Below are positions 3,308-42,987 of a stretch of 47,737 bases of DNA, one piece after another. The stretch lies in the IMG/VR virus record IMGVR_UViG_2541047873_000005; one strand, written 5' to 3'. Positions within the stretch are counted from its first letter, which is position 1. Each line of letters starts with the position of its first letter. The notes under the pieces are model-generated. The model had not been told where the DNA came from. It worked only from the letters and a program-made list of their open reading frames with translations, and searched no databases. Both the position numbers and the translations under genes were made by a program. This DNA is from a virus. Taxonomy: Duplodnaviria; Heunggongvirae; Uroviricota; Caudoviricetes.

Positions 3308-3883
3308 CTACGGCAGTGCTGGCCATTCAATATCCTGTGCAGTTGACGTATCAACACGGTTCAGCAATACCCGATACTTTTTCCATGCTTCCAGCAACGA
3401 GATTTCTTCCTCCGTTGCAATTTCCAGATCTGCAGCATCCTGAAGCGGCGCAATATGCTCACTGGCTACCTGCATCAGGTTGTTTTTTGTTTCTTCCGCC
3501 TCCCGGATCCGGAACAGTTTTTCTGCTTCCGTATCCTTCACCCAGGCTGTGCCGTTCCACTTCTGAAACTCCCCTTCCGGGGATAACCAGGTGACATTTT
3601 CCGGTAATGGGCCAAGTTCAGAAATAAATAACGCGTCGCCGGAAGCCACGTCATAGACGGTTTTACCCCGATGATCTTCAACGAGATGCCACGATGCCTC
3701 ATCACTGTTGAAAACAGCCACGAAGCCAGCCGGAATATCTGGCGGTGCAATATCGGTACTGTTTGCTGGCAGACCTGTATGAGGCGGAATATATGCGTCA
3801 CCTTCACCAATAAATTCATTAGTTCCTGCCAGCAGATTATAAATTTTTATGGTCCGTGGTTGTTCACTCATTCTGAATGCCAT
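3308..3883 (-). CDS. tfa: Tail fibre assembly protein Tfa
   Basis: N-terminus [20 protein letters not shown] matches lambda Tfa along its length; ATG overlaps the stf stop (TAATG). Confidence 0.85.
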
Positions 3884-6798
3884 TATGCAAGCCTCACAAT
3901 GTAGTTAAATGCGATGTTTTTGACAGTGTTTTCCGCGTTACCAGCAGCGTTAACGGTGATGGTGTGTCCATGTGAGCCAATCGCAACAGAGTGCGTATGA
4001 GCACCAATACCGACAGTATGTGCGTGAGCACCTGCAGATGCAGCTGTGCCGCTGACACTATGAGTGTGCGCTCCTGCAGCACTTGTATTCACACTGGCCG
4101 CAGACACTACCTTATGTACTGACCCATTTTGTGACCACTGGCTGACTGCTGATGCGCCTGTGACACTATGAGTATGGTTTCCGGCACTTGCGGCTGTACC
4201 GCTCACACTGTGCGTATGCGCCCCGGTGTTATTCGTGGATTTAGTGCCGTAATCAAACGACGATGTGGTTTTCGTCCCCAAATCCGTACTGGATGCACTG
4301 GCGCTGTGGGTGTGCGATTTAATGCCGTCCTGTTCCTGAGACAATACGGCCCGACCACTGGCAGGTTTGCCCTTAATCGTCCAGCCACGCATATCAGGGA
4401 TCACGCCTGACGGATAAGCGGTTGCAAGTTTCGGGTAAGCGGATTTGTCAAAAGTCTGCCCCTGCATCAGGGCATAACCAGACGGAACGGTATCTGATGG
4501 CCACGGGATTGGTGCGCCAGGCGGATAAAACTGCTCTGATGGCGTATAGAGTGAATAAACTGTACCGTCCGTTAACCCTTCCGGCTTATTAGCAGAATAT
4601 GCTGGTGACGTATGAATAGTCACGCTGGCATTACTGGTATAATCCCATTGAATATTTACACCAGTCGCATAATTTCCGATTGCAACGTAAATATCGTAAG
4701 TATCACCAGATGTATTGACCCAGGCAAAATTTGTAAACCCTGTCGATGTGCGCTGCCATAAAGCACCAGTAATCCCCTTCGGATTACCATTACCTGCACG
4801 CAAAACAAGTTCAGATATACCTGCCTGTTGAGGTGACCCCACGTTAAATCCCGCGCCACCAATCAACGTAATTGAAACAACAGAACTCGCCTGTGGCATG
4901 GTTACCGTTGCTAATTTGAACCAACCAGCACCACCGCTGAATGACATTGTTGTTGAGTTAAGCGTACCAATATCTTTCGGCGTCAGTGTTATATCCGCTG
5001 AAAGCGCCTTACCATTCACCTTACGGGCAGAAGGTACCCGACCATTCGCATTATCATTAGCTGCTTTCACTGCTTTCGGTGTCGCGGCAAGCGTTTCAGA
5101 TGCGCTGTTGGTTGCACTACTGAGCTGGACAATTCCTTTTTGTGCTGTCGTAGCGTCCTGAGCAGTATATTTCCCGTTAGCAAGGTCATAGGCTGCCTTT
5201 ACCGACTTTGGCGTTGCCGCCAGCATTTCAGATGTGCTGTTGGTCGCGCTGCTGAGCTGAACTATCCCTTTTTGTGCTGTCGTTGCATCCTGTGCGGTGT
5301 ATTTCCCGTTAGCCAGCTCATACGCGGCCTTAACGGCTTTTGGCGTTGCCGCCAGTGACTCGGAAGTGCTGTTAGTCGCACTGCTGAGCTGTACTATCCC
5401 CTTTTTCGTCGTGCTCGCATCCTCAAGCGCCACGGCGGATGCAATATCCTCTGCCCGTTTTGCCGCTGTCTCGGCGCGCGTTGCCGCGGATTCCGCCGTA
5501 CTTTTGCTCTGAGCTGCCGCCGTCGCACTGCCAGCTGCCTCTGTCGCCTTCGTGGATGCCGTCGTGGCGCTGCCCTTTGCTGCTGACGCCTGTCTGGTCG
5601 CCTCATCTTTTGAAGCAGACGCAGATGATGCCGATGACGCCGCCGAACTGGCGGACGATGCGGCAGCCGTTTTTGAGGATTCTGCGCTGGTTTCCGACGC
5701 TTTCGCGTTCGTCTCGGATGTCTTCGCTGCGGAAGCAGACCTCGCTGCTGCGCTGGCCTGTTCAGTGGCTTCGCCAGCCTTCGTTGTGGCTGTTGAAGCG
5801 GACGATGCGGCGCTTTCTGCCGATTTTCCGGCAGCGGTGGCACTGGCTGAGGCCTGCCCGGCACTTGTTGACGCGGCACTGGCAGACGACGCAGCCGCTG
5901 TTTTTGAGCCTGCCGCAGCTGAGGCGCTCTGTCCCGCTGCCGTCTCAGAAGACCTGGCGTTCGTCTCGGACGTTTTTGCCGCCTTCGCGGAATTTGCTGC
6001 CGCCGTTGCCGAGGAAGCTGCGCTACTGGCGCTCGAGGATGCGTTCGTTTCTGATGATTTTGCCGCCTCTTTTGAAGCCGACGCATCCCGGGCTGAGGTG
6101 GCAGCTTCTGACGCTTTCGTGGTCGCGGTGGATGCAGAAGTGGCGGCTGATTGTTGTGACGCTGCAGCATTCGTTTCTGACGTTTTCGCGGCAGCGGCAC
6201 TGGTAGCTGCCGCGCTTTTTGAGGACTCTGCAGCGGCAGCACTTTTTTCCGCTTCAGTGGCCTTTGTTGATGCCGTTCCTGCGCTGGAAGACGCTGACTG
6301 AGCCGACGAAGCGGCCTGTCCGGCTGACGTGCTGGCTGCACGTGCTGAATCTGCAGCATCAGTCGCATGGGTTGCCGCCTCACGGGCAGATGTGCCGGCA
6401 TCACTGGCTGACTTCTTCGCGGCTGCCGTGTTCTGTGCCACCACGGACGCGTTACGCGCCACCTCTTCCACCATCTGTTCAAAACGGCGCAGTGCCTCCG
6501 GACGGGCATCATCCTCCGTCATGGCACCGAGAAAATCATTCAGCGTACCGGGTTGAGAATCTTCATACACGGTGATGGTCCCGGCATGTGACGGCGGGAA
6601 TCCTTCCACCAACAGAATAACGCTGTACTGCCCGTACTCAACGTCCATGCTGTAACGCCCGGCTTCATCCGGATTTTCTGAGGCCAGCGTGTTCACCACC
6701 ACCGTGGTGCTGTTACGTTTTGCTTTCAGCTGGATTGTGCAGTTCTGTACCGGTTTTCCTGTGCCGTCTTTCAGTACACCTGAAATCTTTACTGCCAT
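3883..6798 (-). CDS. stf: Side tail fibre protein Stf
   Basis: [27 protein letters not shown]-terminus and [23 protein letters not shown]-terminus as in lambda Stf; Ala/Ser/Thr-rich middle, three 40-aa tandem repeats, His-rich GAHTHS C-terminal repeats; ATG at 6798 (track ORF begins at alternative start 6804). Confidence 0.85.
5040..5410 (-). repeat. Three tandem ~120-bp repeats inside stf encoding [28 protein letters not shown](E/D)[15 protein letters not shown]
   Basis: Near-identical DNA units seen directly at about 5100, 5220 and 5340; coordinates approximate. Confidence 0.7.
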
Positions 6799-6805
6799 AT
6801 TCACC

Positions 6806-6836
6806 CCACAAAAAAGCCCGCCTGAACCGGCGGGCT
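6806..6836 (-). terminator. Rho-independent terminator between lom and stf
   Basis: Hairpin GCCCGCC-tgaacc-GGCGGGC followed by U-run on the minus-strand transcript. Confidence 0.5.
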
Positions 6837-6862
6837 GTCATAACACTGTGTTACCTGGCTAA

Positions 6863-7462
6863 TCAGAACTTATAACCGACACCCACGATGAAACCGTCAG
6901 TGCGCCAGTCGCCACTGCCGGAGCCTTCATAAGCAATATCAATGGCCACGGATTCGGTCGGGTTAAACTGCACGCCAGCTCCCCACGCCAGAGACGTGTT
7001 GCTGTGGCGACCGTCATCACTTCCGGTCAGCACGTCGTGCGTTTTCCCCTTGTTGTCAGTTACGCGGAGATAATCCCCGGAGAAAGTCGACACACGGCTG
7101 TAAGCCATACCCGCCATCGCATACGCGCTGAACCATTCATTCACGCGCACAGACGGCCCCACCATCACGCTGAACCAGCGGTTACGCACGGAATCTTCAT
7201 GCCAGCGGGTATCGCTGTAACGGGTAAGCTGGCGATTCTTGTCTCCTGCATAGCTGAATGACGTCACCAGCCCCAGTGTGTCCGTAAACTCATAACGGTA
7301 TTTCACGTTAATCCCGTTCAGATCATCACTGCCGGGAACGTTCGTCCGGGCATGAAGATACCCCGCGCTCAGCGTGGACTGATGTTCAGACGCCCATGCA
7401 GGCGCACCGGATACGGCCAGACAAATGGCTGCGGACAAAATGGCGGCATAAAGTTTACGCAT
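6863..7462 (-). CDS. lom: Outer membrane protein Lom (Ail/Lom family moron)
   Basis: 199 aa with signal peptide; C-terminus [23 protein letters not shown] matches lambda Lom; RBS AGGTAATT-ATG. Confidence 0.85.
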
Positions 7463-7483
7463 AATTACCTCTCGCTTTTCTGC

Positions 7484-7511
7484 AATAAAAAAGGCGTCAT
7501 TTCTGACGCCC
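7484..7511 (-). terminator. Rho-independent terminator downstream of J, upstream of lom
   Basis: Hairpin GGCGTCA-gaaa-TGACGCC followed by U6 on the minus strand. Confidence 0.5.
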
Positions 7512-7528
7512 GTTCTGGGTTATAAAAT

Positions 7529-10930
<3,402 letters not shown>

Positions 10931-10987
10931 TCACGCTCCATAAACGATAAAACCGCCCGGAGGCGGTTTCACATAAAACATTTTGCA

Positions 10988-11635
10988 TCAGCGACCAATC
11001 ACCACAACCTGACCACCATCCCCTTCGTCTGCCGTGCTGATCTCCTGAGAAACCACACGTGACCCCACGCGCATTTCACCGTACAGAACAGGCAGAACAT
11101 TGCCCTGGGCAACCATGTTATCCAGTGAGGAGAAATAGGTGTTCTGTTTGCCGTTATCTGTACTGGCTGCCGTGGGCGTCCTGGCTTTCGGTGCCAGCAT
11201 CTGCGCCACTCCGCCCAGGATCATACTGGCCCCTGCCGCATACATGCCCGATACAGCCGCGGCCCCCAGCCAGCCCACAGGGTTCCACCATGCCACCGCA
11301 ATCAGCGCCGCCCCAAGCACCACCTGAAACACACCGCCACTTTTAGCTCCCGCCAGACGCGGCACGATGTGGATCACGGCACCATTTGCCAGCGGCTCAT
11401 TAAGACGGGCAGATAATTCATTTTCGCCTGCATCACGCCCGGCAATGCGCACCTGATACCAGCCCTCATTCAGTTTCTGACGAAACACCGGGAGCTGTGT
11501 GGCCAGTGCCCGGATGGCTTCAGCCCCCGTTTTCACACGAAGGTCGATACGGCGACCAAATCGTTGCAAATCCCCGTAAAGGCAGATGCGTGCCATGCCC
11601 GGTGACGCCAGAGGGAGTGTGTGCGTCGCTGCCAT
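10988..11635 (-). CDS. I: Tail tip assembly protein I
   Basis: MAATHTLPLASPGMARICLYGDLQRFGRRIDLRV matches lambda I. Confidence 0.85.
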   Translation of the reverse strand: MAATHTLPLASPGMARICLYGDLQRFGRRIDLRVKTGAEAIRALATQLPVFRQKLNEGWYQVRIAGRDAGENELSARLNEPLANGAVIHIVPRLAGAKSGGVFQVVLGAALIAVAWWNPVGWLGAAAVSGMYAAGASMILGGVAQMLAPKARTPTAASTDNGKQNTYFSSLDNMVAQGNVLPVLYGEMRVGSRVVSQEISTADEGDGGQVVVIGR

Positions 11636-12285
11636 TTGTCGGTGTACCTCTCTCGTTTACTCAGTTGTTCAGGAATATGGTGCAGCAGCTCGCCGTCGCC
11701 ACAGTAAATGGCGGCATGATTCGGCACCGATGAACCAAAACAGCACAGCAGCACATCGCCCGGCTGGGCCGCTGACAACGGCACCTGATACAACCCCGTT
11801 GCCTCCATATTATCCAGATAGAGATTCTGGCCGTGACGCCACCAGTCATCCCCGCGATGAAAATCCGGCATCTCAATTCCCGCCAGATGGTAAGCGTCCC
11901 GGAACAGCGTGTAACAGTCCGTCACCCCGTGCTCAAAGCGCCGCCCGGTGAGATGCGGCACACAGCGGAATTTATGAATCGCCCCCCGGCAGACCAGCCA
12001 CCACGGCAAATCACTCTGCACCTGCAGCCGCCGGTCGGCCTCACTCAGCCAGGGCAGACCACCGGGGTGGCTGTGGACCAGCGCCACAATCTCTCCCTGC
12101 ATTTCTGCACTCAGCCAGTCCTCCGGCGACATCCGGAAATACGCCTCCGGCTCACCAGAGATATTCACGCAGGGAAAATATCTTTCCCCCTCCGGTGTTC
12201 TCACCACGAAGCCGCACGACTCCGCTGGCGCACATCGCCGGGCGTGCGCCAGAATCGCTGATTCTGTCTCTGTCATGGGATTCAC
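11533..12285 (-). CDS. K: Tail tip assembly protein K (JAB/MPN plus NlpC/P60 domains)
   Basis: JAMM motif VHSHPGG; matches lambda K; ATGA overlap with L stop; 3' end overlaps I start. Confidence 0.85.
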   Translation of the reverse strand: MNPMTETESAILAHARRCAPAESCGFVVRTPEGERYFPCVNISGEPEAYFRMSPEDWLSAEMQGEIVALVHSHPGGLPWLSEADRRLQVQSDLPWWLVCRGAIHKFRCVPHLTGRRFEHGVTDCYTLFRDAYHLAGIEMPDFHRGDDWWRHGQNLYLDNMEATGLYQVPLSAAQPGDVLLCCFGSSVPNHAAIYCGDGELLHHIPEQLSKRERYTDKWQRRTHSLWRHRAWHASAFTGICNDLVAVSTFV

Positions 12286-12980
12286 TGCGAAAGTTTGTTA
12301 ATGGAAAGGAAGCCGCCAAAGTTGCCGACGTTATTGCGAAACTTACAGCCGCTCAGGCATTTGCTGCATTTATCCTTCGTGATATCGGACGTCGGCTGAT
12401 CATATTCATCCGCGACCGCCGGACCGTGATAACCGCACTCGTCACCGCGATAGGTCCAGGTGCAGGTGTTGGCCAGCATGATGCGCCCCGGAAAAACGGC
12501 ACCGTCCGTTTCCGTCGGCGTGGACAGTACAAAAGAGGCACTCACCGCGCTCAGTTCGCTGCACTGCTCGATGCGCCAGCGGCTGATCACCTCCTGCTCA
12601 GGATCGGCGTCACTGTTTCCGTTGACGAAGTTCACCGCATCCAGAAAACGGGCGTAAACCTTACGCCTGACCACCGTTCCGCCGACCAGACTCTGCAGAT
12701 CTTCCGCCATCCCGGTGACCATGCCGTGCAGGTTAGAAACCGTCAGTGTCGGACGGGCAGCACTGCCCTTGCCATTCAGTTCAAATCCCGTCCCCTGAAT
12801 GGGGTATGCCTGATACTGCCGCCCCTGCCAGGTAACCGGCTCACCTTTTTCGTTCTGCTCATTACAGAAAAAATAACGTTCACCACCGACCTCTGTCAGA
12901 TCGATTTCCCAGAGCACCACCTGGGCTGACTGAGTGAGGCGTGTCGTCTCATGATGTGTTTCCTGTGGAATATCCTGCAT
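12282..12980 (-). CDS. L: Tail tip protein L
   Basis: 232 aa near-identical to lambda L, including C-terminal CSKCLSGCKFRNNVGNFGGFLSINKLSQ. Confidence 0.9.
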   Translation of the reverse strand: MQDIPQETHHETTRLTQSAQVVLWEIDLTEVGGERYFFCNEQNEKGEPVTWQGRQYQAYPIQGTGFELNGKGSAARPTLTVSNLHGMVTGMAEDLQSLVGGTVVRRKVYARFLDAVNFVNGNSDADPEQEVISRWRIEQCSELSAVSASFVLSTPTETDGAVFPGRIMLANTCTWTYRGDECGYHGPAVADEYDQPTSDITKDKCSKCLSGCKFRNNVGNFGGFLSINKLSQ

Positions 12981-12989
12981 CAGAGCCTC

Positions 12990-13319
12990 CTATGCCACGA
13001 CCTGTTCAAAATCTGCCGTTATGGTTACCCACAACGCCCCCACGCTTGCCGACCATTTACGACAAACCACCCTGATCGGCTTCCAGTCATAAGGTGGCGT
13101 CCACTGAAATGCGCGGACGCCACCGTGCCGTTCCAGAAAGGCTTTTAAAGATGGGTGTTCACATTTACGAACACGTATCGTCACGCTGTAAGTCGACAAC
13201 TGGTTATTCAGTCCCGCCGCACGACGCTGTTCATAACCATCGCCAAGCTTCACTGTCACCACTTTCGGCTCTGATACCACATTCATATCCGGGCGCACTT
13301 TCCAGTGAAACGTCTCCAT
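12990..13319 (-). CDS. M: Tail tip protein M
   Basis: 109 aa, same size and position as lambda M between H and L. Confidence 0.8.
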   Translation of the reverse strand: METFHWKVRPDMNVVSEPKVVTVKLGDGYEQRRAAGLNNQLSTYSVTIRVRKCEHPSLKAFLERHGGVRAFQWTPPYDWKPIRVVCRKWSASVGALWVTITADFEQVVA

Positions 13320-28054: not shown

Positions 28055-28325
28055 GATGTTACCGTAGTATGTGAGTATCCATCGAATAGATACCAAGCAA
28101 AAAAGCTCCCGAAGGAGCCTTCATTTTCACTTTTTTAAATCCAACGACAGACGGCTGGCATTTAAGTATTGTGAAATATTATCAAATGTAATCATCATTG
28201 ATTTACAAAAGATACATTTTGCCCCGAAAGGATTCATGTCAGAAACATCAAAAGATGATGTTCTATACTGGGAACCATGACAACACGGGCATCTAAAGTG
28301 AATATGGTTTGTAATATTGTCTACC

Positions 28326-28538
28326 TCAAAGCGCCACTACATGAACAGCGGCAGGACCTTTAGGTCCGTTCTCAATACCAAATTCAACTTCCTGATTCTC
28401 AGTTAATGTTTTGAAATCGTTGCTCTGAATTGCTGAGAAATGGACAAACACATCTTTGCTGCCATCTTTCGGCGTGATGAAACCAAAACCTTTTTCAGGG
28501 TTAAACCATTTCACTAAACCAGTCATTTTGTTAGACAT
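28326..28538 (-). CDS. cspI: Cold shock protein CspI
   Basis: 70 aa [70 protein letters not shown]; RNP1/RNP2 cold-shock domain motifs. Confidence 0.9.
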
Positions 28539-28901
28539 AATTATTACCTTTTGAAGAAATTAGCCCTTGGGCAGAATGGTCCGAAAAAAAATATCAGAGA
28601 GAAAAACCAACAAGGAAATCTCAAGAGGTACAAATAATAAAATTATAACAATGACTGCTTCAGATAAATTTGTAACAAACCAGAACACCATTAACGCATG
28701 ATTAACCACCCATAGCAAGGATTACTTTTGTAAAGAAAAACACAGCAATGAAAGAATAGCTTTATTTATTAATAATAACGTGTCATTCTGATTAAGACCT
28801 TTTATCTTACCCTTAAGATTTCAGGAATTTTGGCTCATGGAAGAGTCCTTTTTATTTAAATTTTACATTCCGCGATGTAAATGTTCCGATTTAATATTAC
28901 C

Positions 28902-30929: not shown

Positions 30930-31210
30930 GAGATTGTGGTGCTTTTTGTGGGAGTCATCCACTTACGCACTTTGTTTTGCCATGCCAGCAGTTAGCTTCT
31001 GCTGTAAAACTATTCATGCAGCAAACCTGCACTTCACCACAATGGTTAGCATACTTTTCCTGATTAAGATTTTGCCAAATATGCTAGCCATTGTTTCATG
31101 TATTGGACCTCCTTACTTTTTATTAAAGAGATCCAATATTCACTACTCTGTCCGTATCTCTACTCAGGCATCAGCCTTCTTCGTTATCGTATACAGACGA
31201 GCGATGAATT

Positions 31211-31426
31211 TTAATCAGTAATGATGACATTTGCTGCTGCAGGACCTTTAGCACCACTCTCTATAGAGAAGGTAACCTTTTGACCTTCAAATAAGGTTCG
31301 ATAATTATCATTCTGAATCGCAGAAAAATGCACAAACACATCTTTACTACCATCAACAGGAGAAATAAAGCCGAAACCTTTATCAGCGTTAAACCATTTT
31401 ACTAAACCAGTCATTTTATTTGACAT
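31211..31426 (-). CDS. cspB: Cold shock protein CspB
   Basis: 71 aa [71 protein letters not shown]. Confidence 0.9.
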
Positions 31427-31726
31427 TCTACATTCCTTAACTTGAGCCTTTCGGCATAAATGGTTTGCATAACAGAAACGACTTCGTACTTAATTGGAGA
31501 GACTCAAAGAAGGAATAAGTGAATAACACCTGAAATGAGAACTGCTTTAGTAAACTACTTCGTATATCGTCTGTTCTTCAAACCGACGCAATCATTAACG
31601 CATAGTTGAACATATGAAGCAATGTTTATTTTAGACATCCAGCCATCTTCAACCCCATCAAAAAACTATAGCTTTCTTCAGGAACGTGTGTATAGTGCGC
31701 CAAGTTATCAGTATTAAGGAATTTTT

Positions 31727-34990: not shown

Positions 34991-35146
34991 TTACTCCTCA
35001 GGTTCGTAAGCTGTGAAGACAGCGACCTCCGTCTGGCCGGTTCGGATTCGTACCTCGCAGAGGTCTTTCCTCGTTACCAGTGCCGTCACTATGACGGTTA
35101 AACAGATGACGATCAGGGCGATTAACATCGCCTTTTGCTGCTTCAT
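34991..35146 (-). CDS. hokD: Hok-family membrane toxin HokD (RelF)
   Basis: 51 aa MKQQKAMLIALIVICLTVIVTALVTRKDLCEVRIRTGQTEVAVFTAYEPEE matches HokD; track ORF 34991..35203 carries an in-frame upstream extension. Confidence 0.9.
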   Translation of the reverse strand: MKQQKAMLIALIVICLTVIVTALVTRKDLCEVRIRTGQTEVAVFTAYEPEE

Positions 35147-35935
35147 AGCCTGCTTCTCCTTGCCTTTCGGCTCGTAAGAGGCTAACCTACATGTGTCTAG
35201 CATGAAATTGGCCTCAGATTAATGTTAAGCGTCTTGCAGGACGCGTAATGTTAACTGGGGCTTTTCTCTATCTGCCTTTGGTGTTCATGCCCGAGGCAGA
35301 TAGCCTCAAGCACCCGCAGCCATTCTACTTAACTACCGTTACCTCGCCAATATGAAATCAGTCAGAAAGGCGATCCATAAGAACAATAGCAAGACAATAA
35401 ATCGCCATTACAGCCGTAATAGCCAGCGCACATTTGAGAACCAGCACCACAACCTCCTGTATTGGACGTAGACCAGTCCTGATGAATATGAGGCTGTCTC
35501 GTCAGTGATTCAATACAACTATTGGGTATAGTTTCTCTGATTTTTTCTGTGGAAATGGGGCACAACCACTAGTCACCACCAGCACTTCTTTTAATACGCA
35601 AAGTCCGACACAAGCTAACCTTCTAGTCCGCTTTGAGCGAAAAACAGCCATAATTTAGTGCCACGTATATAATGATAGAGCTATTCAAGCTAGCAATTCA
35701 CATGTAAAAATTCAGAGGGTAGAAGCACATAGTTATAAATGTTGGCTCCATCGACAAATTGCGGTCTCAAGTACATTTATTAATGTTGCCCCCGCATTAA
35801 CAAATCATCAAGGTGACGACATGGACGATATTAATATCAGCCTCGACGAACTTAACACTATTGATTTATCCCCCTTAATCCTGAACCGCCCCGGGAATCC
35901 TGGAGACTAAACTTCCTGAGAAAGAGGTAAACAGG

Positions 35936-36262
35936 ATGACTAAAAATACTCGTTTTTCCCCCGAAGTCCGTCAACGGGCAGTCCGTATGGTTCTGGAAAG
36001 TCAGAGCGAATATGACTCACAATGGGCGACAATTTGTTCCATTGCTCCAAAGATTGGCTGTACGCCGGAGACTCTGCGTGTCTGGGTTCGCCAGCATGAG
36101 CGGGATACCGGGGGCGGTGATGGAGGGCTCACCACCGCTGAACGTCAGCGTCTGAAAGAGCTGGAACGTGAAAATCGTGAACTGCGCCGCAGTAACGATA
36201 TCCTTCGCCAGGCTTCCGCTTATTTTGCGAAGGCGGAGTTCGACCGCCTCTGGAAAAAATGA
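35936..36262 (+). CDS. IS629 transposase OrfA (HTH)
   Basis: 108 aa [37 protein letters not shown]...; ends next to an A6 run usable for -1 frameshift into orfB. Confidence 0.9.
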
Positions 36263-37149
36263 TGCCACTGCTGGATAAGCTGCGTGAGCAGTACGGGGTC
36301 GGACCGCTATGCAGCGAACTGCATATTGCCCCGTCAACGTATTACCACTGTCAGCAACAGCGACATCATCCGGATAAACGCAGTGCCCGTGCGCAGCGCG
36401 ATGACTGGCTGAAGAAAGAGATACAGCGCGTATACGATGAAAATCACAAGGTATACGGTGTGCGTAAAGTCTGGCGTCAGTTGTTACGGGAAGGTATCAG
36501 AGTGGCCAGATGCACTGTGGCACGTCTCATGGCGGTTATGGGACTTGCCGGTGTTCTCCGGGGTAAAAAGGTCCGTACGACCATCAGCCGGAAAGCCGTT
36601 GCCGCAGGCGACCGCGTAAACCGTCAGTTCGTGGCAGAACGACCTGACCAGCTGTGGGTGGCTGATTTTACTTACGTCAGCACATGGCGGGGCTTCGTCT
36701 ATGTGGCGTTCATCATTGATGTGTTTGCCGGATACATCGTGGGGTGGCGGGTCTCATCGTCCATGGAAACGACATTCGTGCTGGATGCACTGGAGCAGGC
36801 GTTATGGGCCCGTCGACCGTCCGGCACGGTCCATCACAGTGATAAAGGTTCTCAGTATGTATCGCTGGCCTACACACAGCGGCTTAAGGAAGCCGGATTA
36901 CTGGCATCAACAGGAAGTACAGGCGACTCGTATGACAACGCGATGGCGGAGAGCATCAATGGTCTTTACAAAGCGGAGGTAATACACCGTAAGAGCTGGA
37001 AAAACCGTGCAGAAGTGGAACTGGCCACACTCACGTGGGTGGACTGGTATAACAATCGACGATTGCTGGAAAGGCTGGGCCATACTCCTCCGGCAGAAGC
37101 AGAAAAAGCTTATTATGCTTCCATCGGAAACGATGATCTGGCAGCCTGA
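36259..37149 (+). CDS. IS629 transposase OrfB (DDE integrase core)
   Basis: 296 aa, -1 frame overlap with orfA; DDE motifs (WVADFTY..., HSDKGSQY..., DNAMAES). Confidence 0.9.
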
Positions 37150-37385
37150 GTTCACAGATAAAACACTCTCCAGGAAACCCGGGGCGGTTCATCCAGAGTA
37201 AGCTGCCAGTTACCTGCTTTGATATCACAAAGTATCTTTCTAGCCTAGGTGATGGAAGAGCGGAGATAAGACTGCTAACCCATATTTGCGGTTTTCACTT
37301 TCGTCCCGAAAATCCACAGGTACCATTTGGTCCGTGCTTTCAAAGCAGCCAAGGTAGATCTGCAATTCCGGATGACATTAACGGG

Positions 37386-38921
37386 TTGTCGCTGGAGGTA
37401 CTTTCTCAATTTTGCCCGACGATAGAGCTACCCGAACTTCAAGCTCGTATTGCTGATACACTTTGGGTTCGTAAAATTGGTGGAATCCGTTTTCCTTTGC
37501 TGGCAGTCCGTGCTTATTATGCGTCCAGTATAGCTATTATGACATCGCAAGGGACGTGGGTTAGTGCTTTAGAACGCCTAGAGCGTGCGCTTAGGCTGTG
37601 TTGTTTTTTTCGAAAGAATACTGATTTCAGGGATGAATTTGATCAGCTTTCGGCACATCTACTAGCAGAGTATGAACGTACCAGAGAACAAGGCGATTCA
37701 CCTTATCCGCTGCGACTCCTGCAACTCGATATCGACTGTAAAGTGAGTGAGCCATCTTTTATTGCCCAGGAACTCCTGTTTCTGACAAAAAACTATCTGG
37801 CTCAAAAATTATTTTCATTTGCCGTCGATGCCTGTAAAACCGCAATCACGATTGCGAATAGGTGCTGTGACAGAGATACACAGTTTGAATTCTGGCGGCT
37901 TCTTGCCGATACACATCTGGAAGAGTCAAAATTCCAAGATGGCGGTATGATTTCGGCAGCCTGCATGCAGAATGCTATTGAAGCACTGGCTAATATTCCA
38001 GGAACCCGAATAGAACGTCTTGCGCTGTATGAAGAAATGCGTGATTACCAAATCGAATCCCGTCACCAGATGTCTATCCTTCAGTCTCCCCCTCAAGATA
38101 TTAGTGAGATTGTCCATCAAGCCAAGAGTCGGGTAGTCGGAAGAGATATGTTTGATATGGTTTTCAGACTTGCGATGCTGGTCTGTCGGCCAACCAGCAT
38201 TGAGAGACTTAAGGCTCAAGCAATAGAACAAAAGGCCAACAGCATAGCTTGGATGTTTGGATCAACACATATTGATCATGAGGGAATGACACTTGCTCGC
38301 ATACCCGCAGGATTGGGGATTGATGATGCAAATGGGGCAGTTATTTGGCCCATAATGATGACGAGAATGCGTATCGACCATGAGTTGGCAGTAGCTGGGC
38401 AAATTATTCCTGCTACAGATGAGATCACAATGAAATATCCAATCTCGGAGGCGTTTTTTCGCGATATGTTCATCAATCATCCCTTCATCCCGTTTGGGCA
38501 TGAAGAGTTTTTCATCAAGGGTATGGTTTGCGGTTTCAATGGAGATTTTATGACGGCATGCCACGTGTTGATTCCCCAGATCGAAAATAGTCTGAGATAT
38601 GTGGCTAAAATTAAAGGTGAGGAACCATCGCAGCTTCACGGGGACGGTTCGCAAGAGCGAAATGGACTCAAGGGATTACTAGATAATCCACTGATTATTG
38701 AAGCTTTCGGCGTAGACATAATTGGCAATCTTCAGGCCTTACTGGTAGATAAAATCTATGGTGATTTACGAAATCAACTAGCTCACGGATATGTGCCTGC
38801 CGGTTACTACAATCAACCTCCCTGCATTTTTGCATGGTGGCTTGTATTGCACATTCTAATGAACCCTACGGCGAGATACTGGCAAGCCACTTATGGCCAA
38901 GAGAGTGAGGCTCAGACTTAA
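37386..38921 (+). CDS. 3' fragment (511 codons) of the IS629-disrupted gene
   Basis: Track ORF from TTG at 37386; contains DLRNQLAHGY near the C-terminus (about 38768..38785). Confidence 0.5.
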   Translation: MSLEVLSQFCPTIELPELQARIADTLWVRKIGGIRFPLLAVRAYYASSIAIMTSQGTWVSALERLERALRLCCFFRKNTDFRDEFDQLSAHLLAEYERTREQGDSPYPLRLLQLDIDCKVSEPSFIAQELLFLTKNYLAQKLFSFAVDACKTAITIANRCCDRDTQFEFWRLLADTHLEESKFQDGGMISAACMQNAIEALANIPGTRIERLALYEEMRDYQIESRHQMSILQSPPQDISEIVHQAKSRVVGRDMFDMVFRLAMLVCRPTSIERLKAQAIEQKANSIAWMFGSTHIDHEGMTLARIPAGLGIDDANGAVIWPIMMTRMRIDHELAVAGQIIPATDEITMKYPISEAFFRDMFINHPFIPFGHEEFFIKGMVCGFNGDFMTACHVLIPQIENSLRYVAKIKGEEPSQLHGDGSQERNGLKGLLDNPLIIEAFGVDIIGNLQALLVDKIYGDLRNQLAHGYVPAGYYNQPPCIFAWWLVLHILMNPTARYWQATYGQESEAQT

Positions 38922-42928: not shown

Positions 42929-42987
42929 TTTTCTGGTGACGTTTGGCGGTATCAGTTTTACTCCGTGACTGCTCTGCCGCCGTTTTT
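42929..42987 (+). ncRNA. dicF: DicF small RNA (ftsZ-targeting, Hfq-dependent) with intrinsic terminator
   Basis: TTTCTGGTGACGTTTGGCGGTATCAGTTTTACTCCGTGACTGCTCTGCCGCC followed by T5 matches the recalled DicF sequence; located between ydfC and dicB. Confidence 0.85.

Follow-up and report, generated by a model that had tools for sequence, protein, structure and literature searches.

The window analysed here, a stretch of 47,737 nt, is over its whole length (1-47737) a lambdoid prophage of the Qin locus, with a truncated ydfJ at one end and the integrase by rspB at the other. Between hokD and the replication genes it carries a mobile element that splits a reading frame, and this locus raises a set of connected questions: which element it is, whether it arrived by transposition, what became of the gene that it entered, and whether it tells anything about the strain that carries it. 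The first-pass annotation had regarded the element as a complete IS629 copy flanked by a TCC duplication, and as a strain marker. Our preferred explanation, to which we give a probability of about 0.96, is that an intact IS629 (IS3 family, of the Shigella/ExPEC type) entered an accessory gene of the prophage at codon 21 by transposition, with duplication of TCC. It is an ordinary IS629 insertion that follows known biology, and its practical value is small.

The element, its name and the empty site

A complete IS3-family element of 1310 bp lies at 35882-37191 on the plus strand, starting with TGAACCGCCCCGGG and finishing with CCCGGGGCGGTTCA, and it is the only copy within the window. Its left end reads TGAACCGCCCCGGGAATCCTGGAGA and its right end TCTCCAGGAAACCCGGGGCGGTTCA. 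The ends are of the TG...CA type usual in the IS3 family (TGAACCG...CGGTTCA), with imperfect terminal inverted repeats of 25 nt each that are complementary at 23 of 25 positions (92%), so that the length of exactly 1310 bp between inverted repeats, as claimed before, is confirmed. TCC stands on both flanks, as a short direct duplication within the 3-4 bp of IS629. The features of the element and its borders are as follows.

35882-37191, plus strand: IS629, complete, 1310 bp, 100% identical to many E. coli copies
35882-35906, plus strand: left terminal inverted repeat (IRL), complementary to 37167-37191 at 23 of 25 positions
37167-37191, plus strand: right terminal inverted repeat (IRR), paired with IRL
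35879-35881, no strand: left target-site duplication TCC (one TCC in the empty-site allele)
37192-37194, no strand: right target-site duplication TCC (one TCC in the empty-site allele)

The name IS629 was judged by curated and NCBI-labelled copies, which serve as proxies for the type sequence X51586. The differences of the window copy from each of them are listed below.

Many E. coli chromosomal and plasmid copies: 0 differences, 100%
Curated 'insertion sequence: IS3 family IS629' of the Stx2 phage LC567824: 6 of 1310, 99.54%
Shigella boydii plasmid copy: 5 of 1310, 99.62%
Truncated copy of O145:H28, NCBI label 'IS629 family': 3 of 795, 99.62%
pO157 copy of O157:H7 EDL933, NCBI label 'IS1203 family': 51 of 1310, 96.11%

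Judged by these proxies, the window copy shows at least 95% identity to IS629 and is closer to it than to IS1203, the other named element in the comparison. The identity of 99.5-99.6% to curated or Shigella IS629 copies supports the name proposed in the first-pass annotation.

The locus was searched with a 7-kb query (7001 bp) around the element against complete E. coli genomes, 127 of which match 80% or more of the query at one place. The best-matching genomes cover 81% of it at 100% identity; the match spans 5688 bp, that is, 7001 minus 1313. In about 120 complete E. coli genomes the prophage locus is 1313 bp shorter and has a single TCC. The uninterrupted allele of E. coli CFSAN061770 (NZ_CP023142.1) reads CCCTTAATCC followed directly by AGAGTAAG, with one TCC, and a longer reading of the same empty site is CCCCCTTAATCC followed by AGAGTAAGCTG, again with a single TCC. 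The whole window is collinear with the prophage of this strain at about 99.99% identity, with some six substitutions apart from the IS; from 21000 to the end of the window, the 99.99% identity falls into two blocks that abut at the element. Since the sole difference at the site is the element plus one TCC, we conclude that it was transposed with a 3-bp target duplication, and since the relatives have a single TCC at the shorter locus, it was the insertion that created the duplication. The comparison of related strains for presence or absence of the element, suggested with the first-pass annotation, thus returned relatives that are shorter by exactly the element and its duplication, and the claim of identical TCC flanks held.

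Two other accounts of the element deserve weighing here. One is that the TCC flanks are coincidental and that the element arrived by recombination between IS copies: a 3-bp match occurs by chance in 1 of 64 cases, and some copies, such as that on pO157 of EDL933, have no flanking repeat. However, the empty allele has exactly one TCC, the difference in size is exactly 1313 bp, and on either side the sequence is otherwise collinear at about 99.99% identity, which makes this account barely credible. The other concerns the name, for which a different isoform, IS1203 (the O157:H7 / O111 type) or IS3411, might be better. IS629, IS1203 and IS3411 are all 1310 bp long with the same layout and are treated as isoforms (PMC3271280), and NCBI labels identical copies merely 'IS3 family transposase'. 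Yet there are 51 differences (96.1% identity) from the IS1203-family copy versus 3-6 from IS629-labelled or Shigella plasmid copies, and a fusion product modelled on the exact window DNA (see below) bears the IS629 family name, so that renaming appears very improbable, if somewhat less so than the recombination. We therefore retain the transposition of an IS629 copy as our reading.

One ambiguity of reading is formal. An A precedes the left TCC (35878) and an A ends the element (37191), and the event can equally be read as an element of 1309 bp with a 4-bp duplication ATCC (35878-35881 and 37191-37194). Because all the compared copies have the canonical TGAACC...GGTTCA ends, 1310 bp with TCC is favoured. 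Curated IS629 copies carry duplications of either 3 bp (TAA) or 4 bp (CCAG). The S. boydii plasmid copy (L005) has the same kind of ambiguity (ATTC/TTC).

The G+C content around the insertion site is 41.7%. Rfam finds further structured RNAs elsewhere in the window, some of them landmarks of the prophage.

35141-35315, minus strand: sok, antitoxin RNA for hokD; the insertion lies about 570 bp downstream
42931-42982, plus strand: DicF sRNA
28299-28684 and 31195-31587, minus strand: cspA-type thermoregulator leaders (cspB/cspI region)
3342-3540, minus strand: IS009 sRNA

Transposase genes and the predicted frameshift signal

The element contains two overlapping genes and a candidate signal for -1 frameshifting, as follows.

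35936-36262, plus strand: orfA, 108 aa, HTH_Tnp_1 DNA-binding protein (PF01527, E 7e-13)
36259-37149, plus strand: orfB, 296 aa, DDE integrase core (rve PF00665, E 8e-28; transpos_IS3, E 1e-93)
36217-36333, plus strand: ALIL (apical loop-internal loop) pseudoknot (Rfam RF01497, 120.2 bits)
36223-36226, plus strand: putative -1 slip site U_UUU (UUU codon 36224-36226 preceded by U 36223)
36254-36259, plus strand: A6 run, alternative slip site, at the orfA stop and orfB start

The two genes share ATGA; orfB lies in the -1 phase, and its frame is already open from 36196. This is the arrangement of the IS3 family, namely overlapping reading frames in phases 0 and -1 with the HTH protein first and the DDE protein second. 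OrfB matches HTH_21 besides rve, and it matches transpos_IS3, the NCBIfam model of IS3-family transposases. Its catalytic triad is placed at D136 (36664), D195 (36841) and E231 (36949); 35 residues separate D195 from E231, as in DD(35)E transposases, and K238 follows at E+7. The orfA/orfB layout with a -1 frameshift, which had been assigned to the IS3 family beforehand, is therefore supported by the frames, the domains and the presence of the ALIL pseudoknot, though the frameshift itself is a prediction from the sequence.

The match to RF01497 is full length (1-117) and far above the gathering score of 50. Stem 1 of the pseudoknot (36232) follows the U_UUU motif at a distance of 5 nt, a spacing that falls within the 4-10 nt between slip site and structure in IS3-family frameshift signals (PMC4066793). 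A slippery motif and a downstream structure, as modelled, are both present, and U_UUU is most likely the slip site, with the A6 run as the alternative. The ALIL structure has been linked with -1 frameshifting in at least 27 IS elements besides IS3411 (PMC5009743), and the signal of IS3411 was described by Mazauric et al. 2008 (as cited in PMC5009743 and PMC4066793). The protein records depend on the site: the OrfAB fusion at U_UUU is the NCBI 'IS3 family transposase' of 379 contigs, and the fusion at A6 is WP_085959878.1, 'IS3-like element IS629 family transposase', of 1 contig. The name that NCBI gives to OrfAB from identical DNA thus depends on the frameshift site that is modelled.

By analogy with the IS3 family and with IS629/IS1203v, OrfA would come from ordinary translation, and a programmed -1 frameshift, likeliest on U_UUU and stimulated by the ALIL structure, would give the OrfAB transposase. 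The element would then move by copy-out-paste-in via a circular intermediate with abutted ends, as described for the IS3 family (Chandler et al., preprint 10.1101/2023.06.07.543989; see also PMC4066793). The uninterrupted reading frames and the 100% identity to many dispersed copies are indirect signs that the window copy may be competent for transposition.

The interrupted gene and other insertions in it

The gene on both sides of the element is annotated as 'DUF4209 domain-containing protein' (WP_000340970.1, 595 aa), and the element entered it after the first base of codon 21. Its two pieces in the window are these.

35821-35881, plus strand: 5' stub of the disrupted gene, codons 1-20 and the first base of codon 21 (MDDINISLDELNTIDLSPLI)
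37194-38921, plus strand: 3' remainder, DUF7380/DUF4209 (HEPN; PDC-S39-like), codon 21 to the stop

When the element and one TCC are removed in silico, 595 uninterrupted codons result that encode exactly WP_000340970.1, a protein found on more than 1000 contigs. It has an N-terminal DUF7380 and a C-terminal DUF4209 domain, and the HMM of the PADLOC candidate system PDC-S39 matches it with an E-value of 8e-103 over residues 43-581. Anantharaman et al. 2013 (PMC3710099) placed DUF4209 within the HEPN RNase superfamily, and the Rx4-6H motif of HEPN proteins is present as RNQLAH at residues 546-551 (38769-38786). A literature search for 'EMARD', the Pfam label of PF13910, returned only unrelated papers on human disease. 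The split of codon 21 and the restoration of WP_000340970.1 by excision bear out, at the level of the sequence, the earlier proposal that the insertion explains the pseudogenisation of the neighbouring gene, and the annotation of two gene pieces can give way to a single pseudogene, that of a candidate defence protein, interrupted by an IS.

Because the first 20 codons and the promoter are cut off from the remaining gene, the insertion is most likely a null allele. A less simple outcome would be that transcription reads out of the element, translation restarts at TTG 37386, and an N-terminally truncated HEPN protein of 511 aa is made, with altered and possibly deregulated activity. The IS and the target gene have the same orientation, the target frame downstream of the IS is open from 37137, a 511-aa reading frame would retain the DUF4209/HEPN part with the Rx4H motif, and annotations of other assemblies include this 511-aa product. 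On the other hand, no ATG, GTG or TTG lies in frame from 37137 until TTG 37386, which is the first possible restart, no convincing Shine-Dalgarno sequence precedes it, and the 511-aa product would miss about half of DUF7380 (its profile of 177 positions is matched only from position 96). The promoter scan of 35600-37500 predicted no sigma-70-like site anywhere in that region, which is also why it is uninformative on transcription of the element or of the gene downstream, though it lends the restart no help. We regard such a residual product as unlikely and keep to the null allele. In two other records (L008 and L009, around 3800-4000) the site is empty and the gene is nevertheless called as the 511-aa product; L009 has a separate 40-aa reading frame upstream, which suggests that the 5' end of the gene has a point mutation or frameshift.

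Look-ups of truncated products in public assemblies revealed about nine further independent IS insertions in the same gene, a set that is biased by the manner of the search towards the 5' end of the gene, the intact gene being far commoner. The ends of IS1 and IS2 were checked against K-12. The insertions are listed with their places in window coordinates or codons.

About 35830: IS5 (L010)
35835/36: IS629, same orientation (L012)
About 37201: IS2 (L014)
37205/06: IS1 (L015)
37207/08: junction next to a resolvase gene (L011)
37290/91: IS629, inverted (L016, seven samples)
37383/84: IS629, inverted (L013, L017)
Near codon 440: IS4 (NZ_CP070048.1)
Near codon 520: IS66-family element (22 contigs)

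IS629 has hit the gene at four sites, the window copy included. A confinement of the hits to the 5' end was considered and rejected, as 3' insertions (IS4 and the IS66 family) exist too. With about ten IS hits, one may speculate that the gene is costly or toxic to its own cell and selected for inactivation, or that it is reversibly switched off, IS629 being precisely excisable where the IEE protein is present. We hold this idea to be unlikely; an alternative to selection is that the AT-rich stretch is a hot spot for insertion. Recurrent IS hits in a PDC-S39-like gene could all the same interest work on the cost of defence systems.

Related prophages show further IS elements near this gene. In the bovine strain B1_2 (L020, NZ_CP074764.1), two IS66-family elements and an IS629-like copy lie at 5300-13150, a cluster in the replication region of the prophage next to an intact DUF4209 gene. 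In SCU-482 (L019), GN05505 (H29), L013 and L017, IS5 separates the DUF4209 gene from the DUF977 gene. The early region of this prophage type gathers IS elements in general.

Value as a marker and likeness to known elements

The value of the insertion as a strain marker has to be divided between the occupied site and the element as such. With regard to the site, a query of 200 nt across the left junction was found in none of 5426 complete E. coli genomes, and a junction string of 32 nt had no exact match among 185,579 species-representative genomes. The junction is also absent from the contigs that encode the 511-aa product, which have other insertions or the empty site. A match in a poultry strain (H1), with an ABC-three-component gene under the match, was rejected as the same locus, as it has another insertion site. 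The sole complete genome that covers 100% of the 7-kb query (H26) was likewise rejected as a carrier of the occupied site, as its target gene is intact; its IS629-like copy lies 8 kb off, in the replication region. The insertion at this site is private to the strain or clone. Its flanks are about 99.99% identical to prophages without the insertion and its junction is in no complete genome, and so the insertion is recent or private. The occupied site is therefore a clean presence/absence marker, as used in IS-printing, for the strain or clone, and to this extent the marker value stands.

The presence of the element, by contrast, is no such marker, being widespread. A place covering at least 80% of it is found in 3043 of the 5426 complete E. 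coli genomes (56%), and in 1299 records the best match is at least 99% identical. Copies with 100% identity occur on chromosomes and plasmids of poultry and human extraintestinal E. coli, on a plasmid of Salmonella enterica, and in a GenBank record of 1997 from the ECOR strain EC38; the uropathogenic strain CFT073 encodes the identical OrfB several times. The prophages most closely related to the flanking one were in isolates from healthy humans, wastewater, poultry and cheese. The element is thus neither restricted to nor diagnostic of EHEC/Shigella, and the statement that IS629 is characteristic of these lineages has to be abandoned. Since identical copies are widespread and 51 nt separate the window copy from the EDL933 copy, the presence of the element is uninformative on pathotype.

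The name itself covers more than one sequence type. The first description of IS629 came from Shigella sonnei (Matsutani & Ohtsubo 1990, cited in PMC3271280), and 'IS629' comprises sub-types that are 4-5% apart (Rump et al. 2011, PMC3271280). Sub-type I is IS1203-like and dominant in O157:H7, sub-type II resembles the IS629 of Shigella, and sub-type III resembles that of O26:H11 (Rump et al. 2011, PMC3271280). The window copy is near the Shigella plasmid copy and far from the IS1203-like type of O157, which points to the Shigella-like sub-type II in a comparison that covered the first two types. By its sequence it is of the Shigella/ExPEC-like type and not of the O157 type. The name 'IS629' spans types about 4% apart, and the type in the window is no sign of an EHEC or Shigella background.

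Among known systems, the PADLOC PDC-S39/DUF4209 HEPN proteins resemble the interrupted gene in the matching profile, the C-terminal DUF4209 and the Rx4H motif; they differ in that the window copy of the gene is broken, and PDC-S39 is itself a candidate defence system only. The likeness to IS3411 lies in the full-length and high-scoring match to RF01497, and frameshifting in the window copy is a prediction. IS1203/IS1203v, the 'IS629' of O157:H7 (sub-type I), has the same length, organisation and mechanism. Under the usual 95% rule it is an isoform of the same element. The copy on pO157 of EDL933 is 51 nt apart from the window copy and differs in 4 of 108 residues of OrfA and 8 of 296 of OrfB, and the IRL differs at two positions (GGGTTTCC versus GGGAATCC). 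Closest of all is IS629 (IS3 family, IS51 group), which has the same 1310 bp, terminal repeats, orfA/orfB layout and duplication of 3-4 bp, and the compared IS629 copies of Stx phages and the S. boydii plasmid are separated from the window copy by 5-6 point differences, none of them structural.
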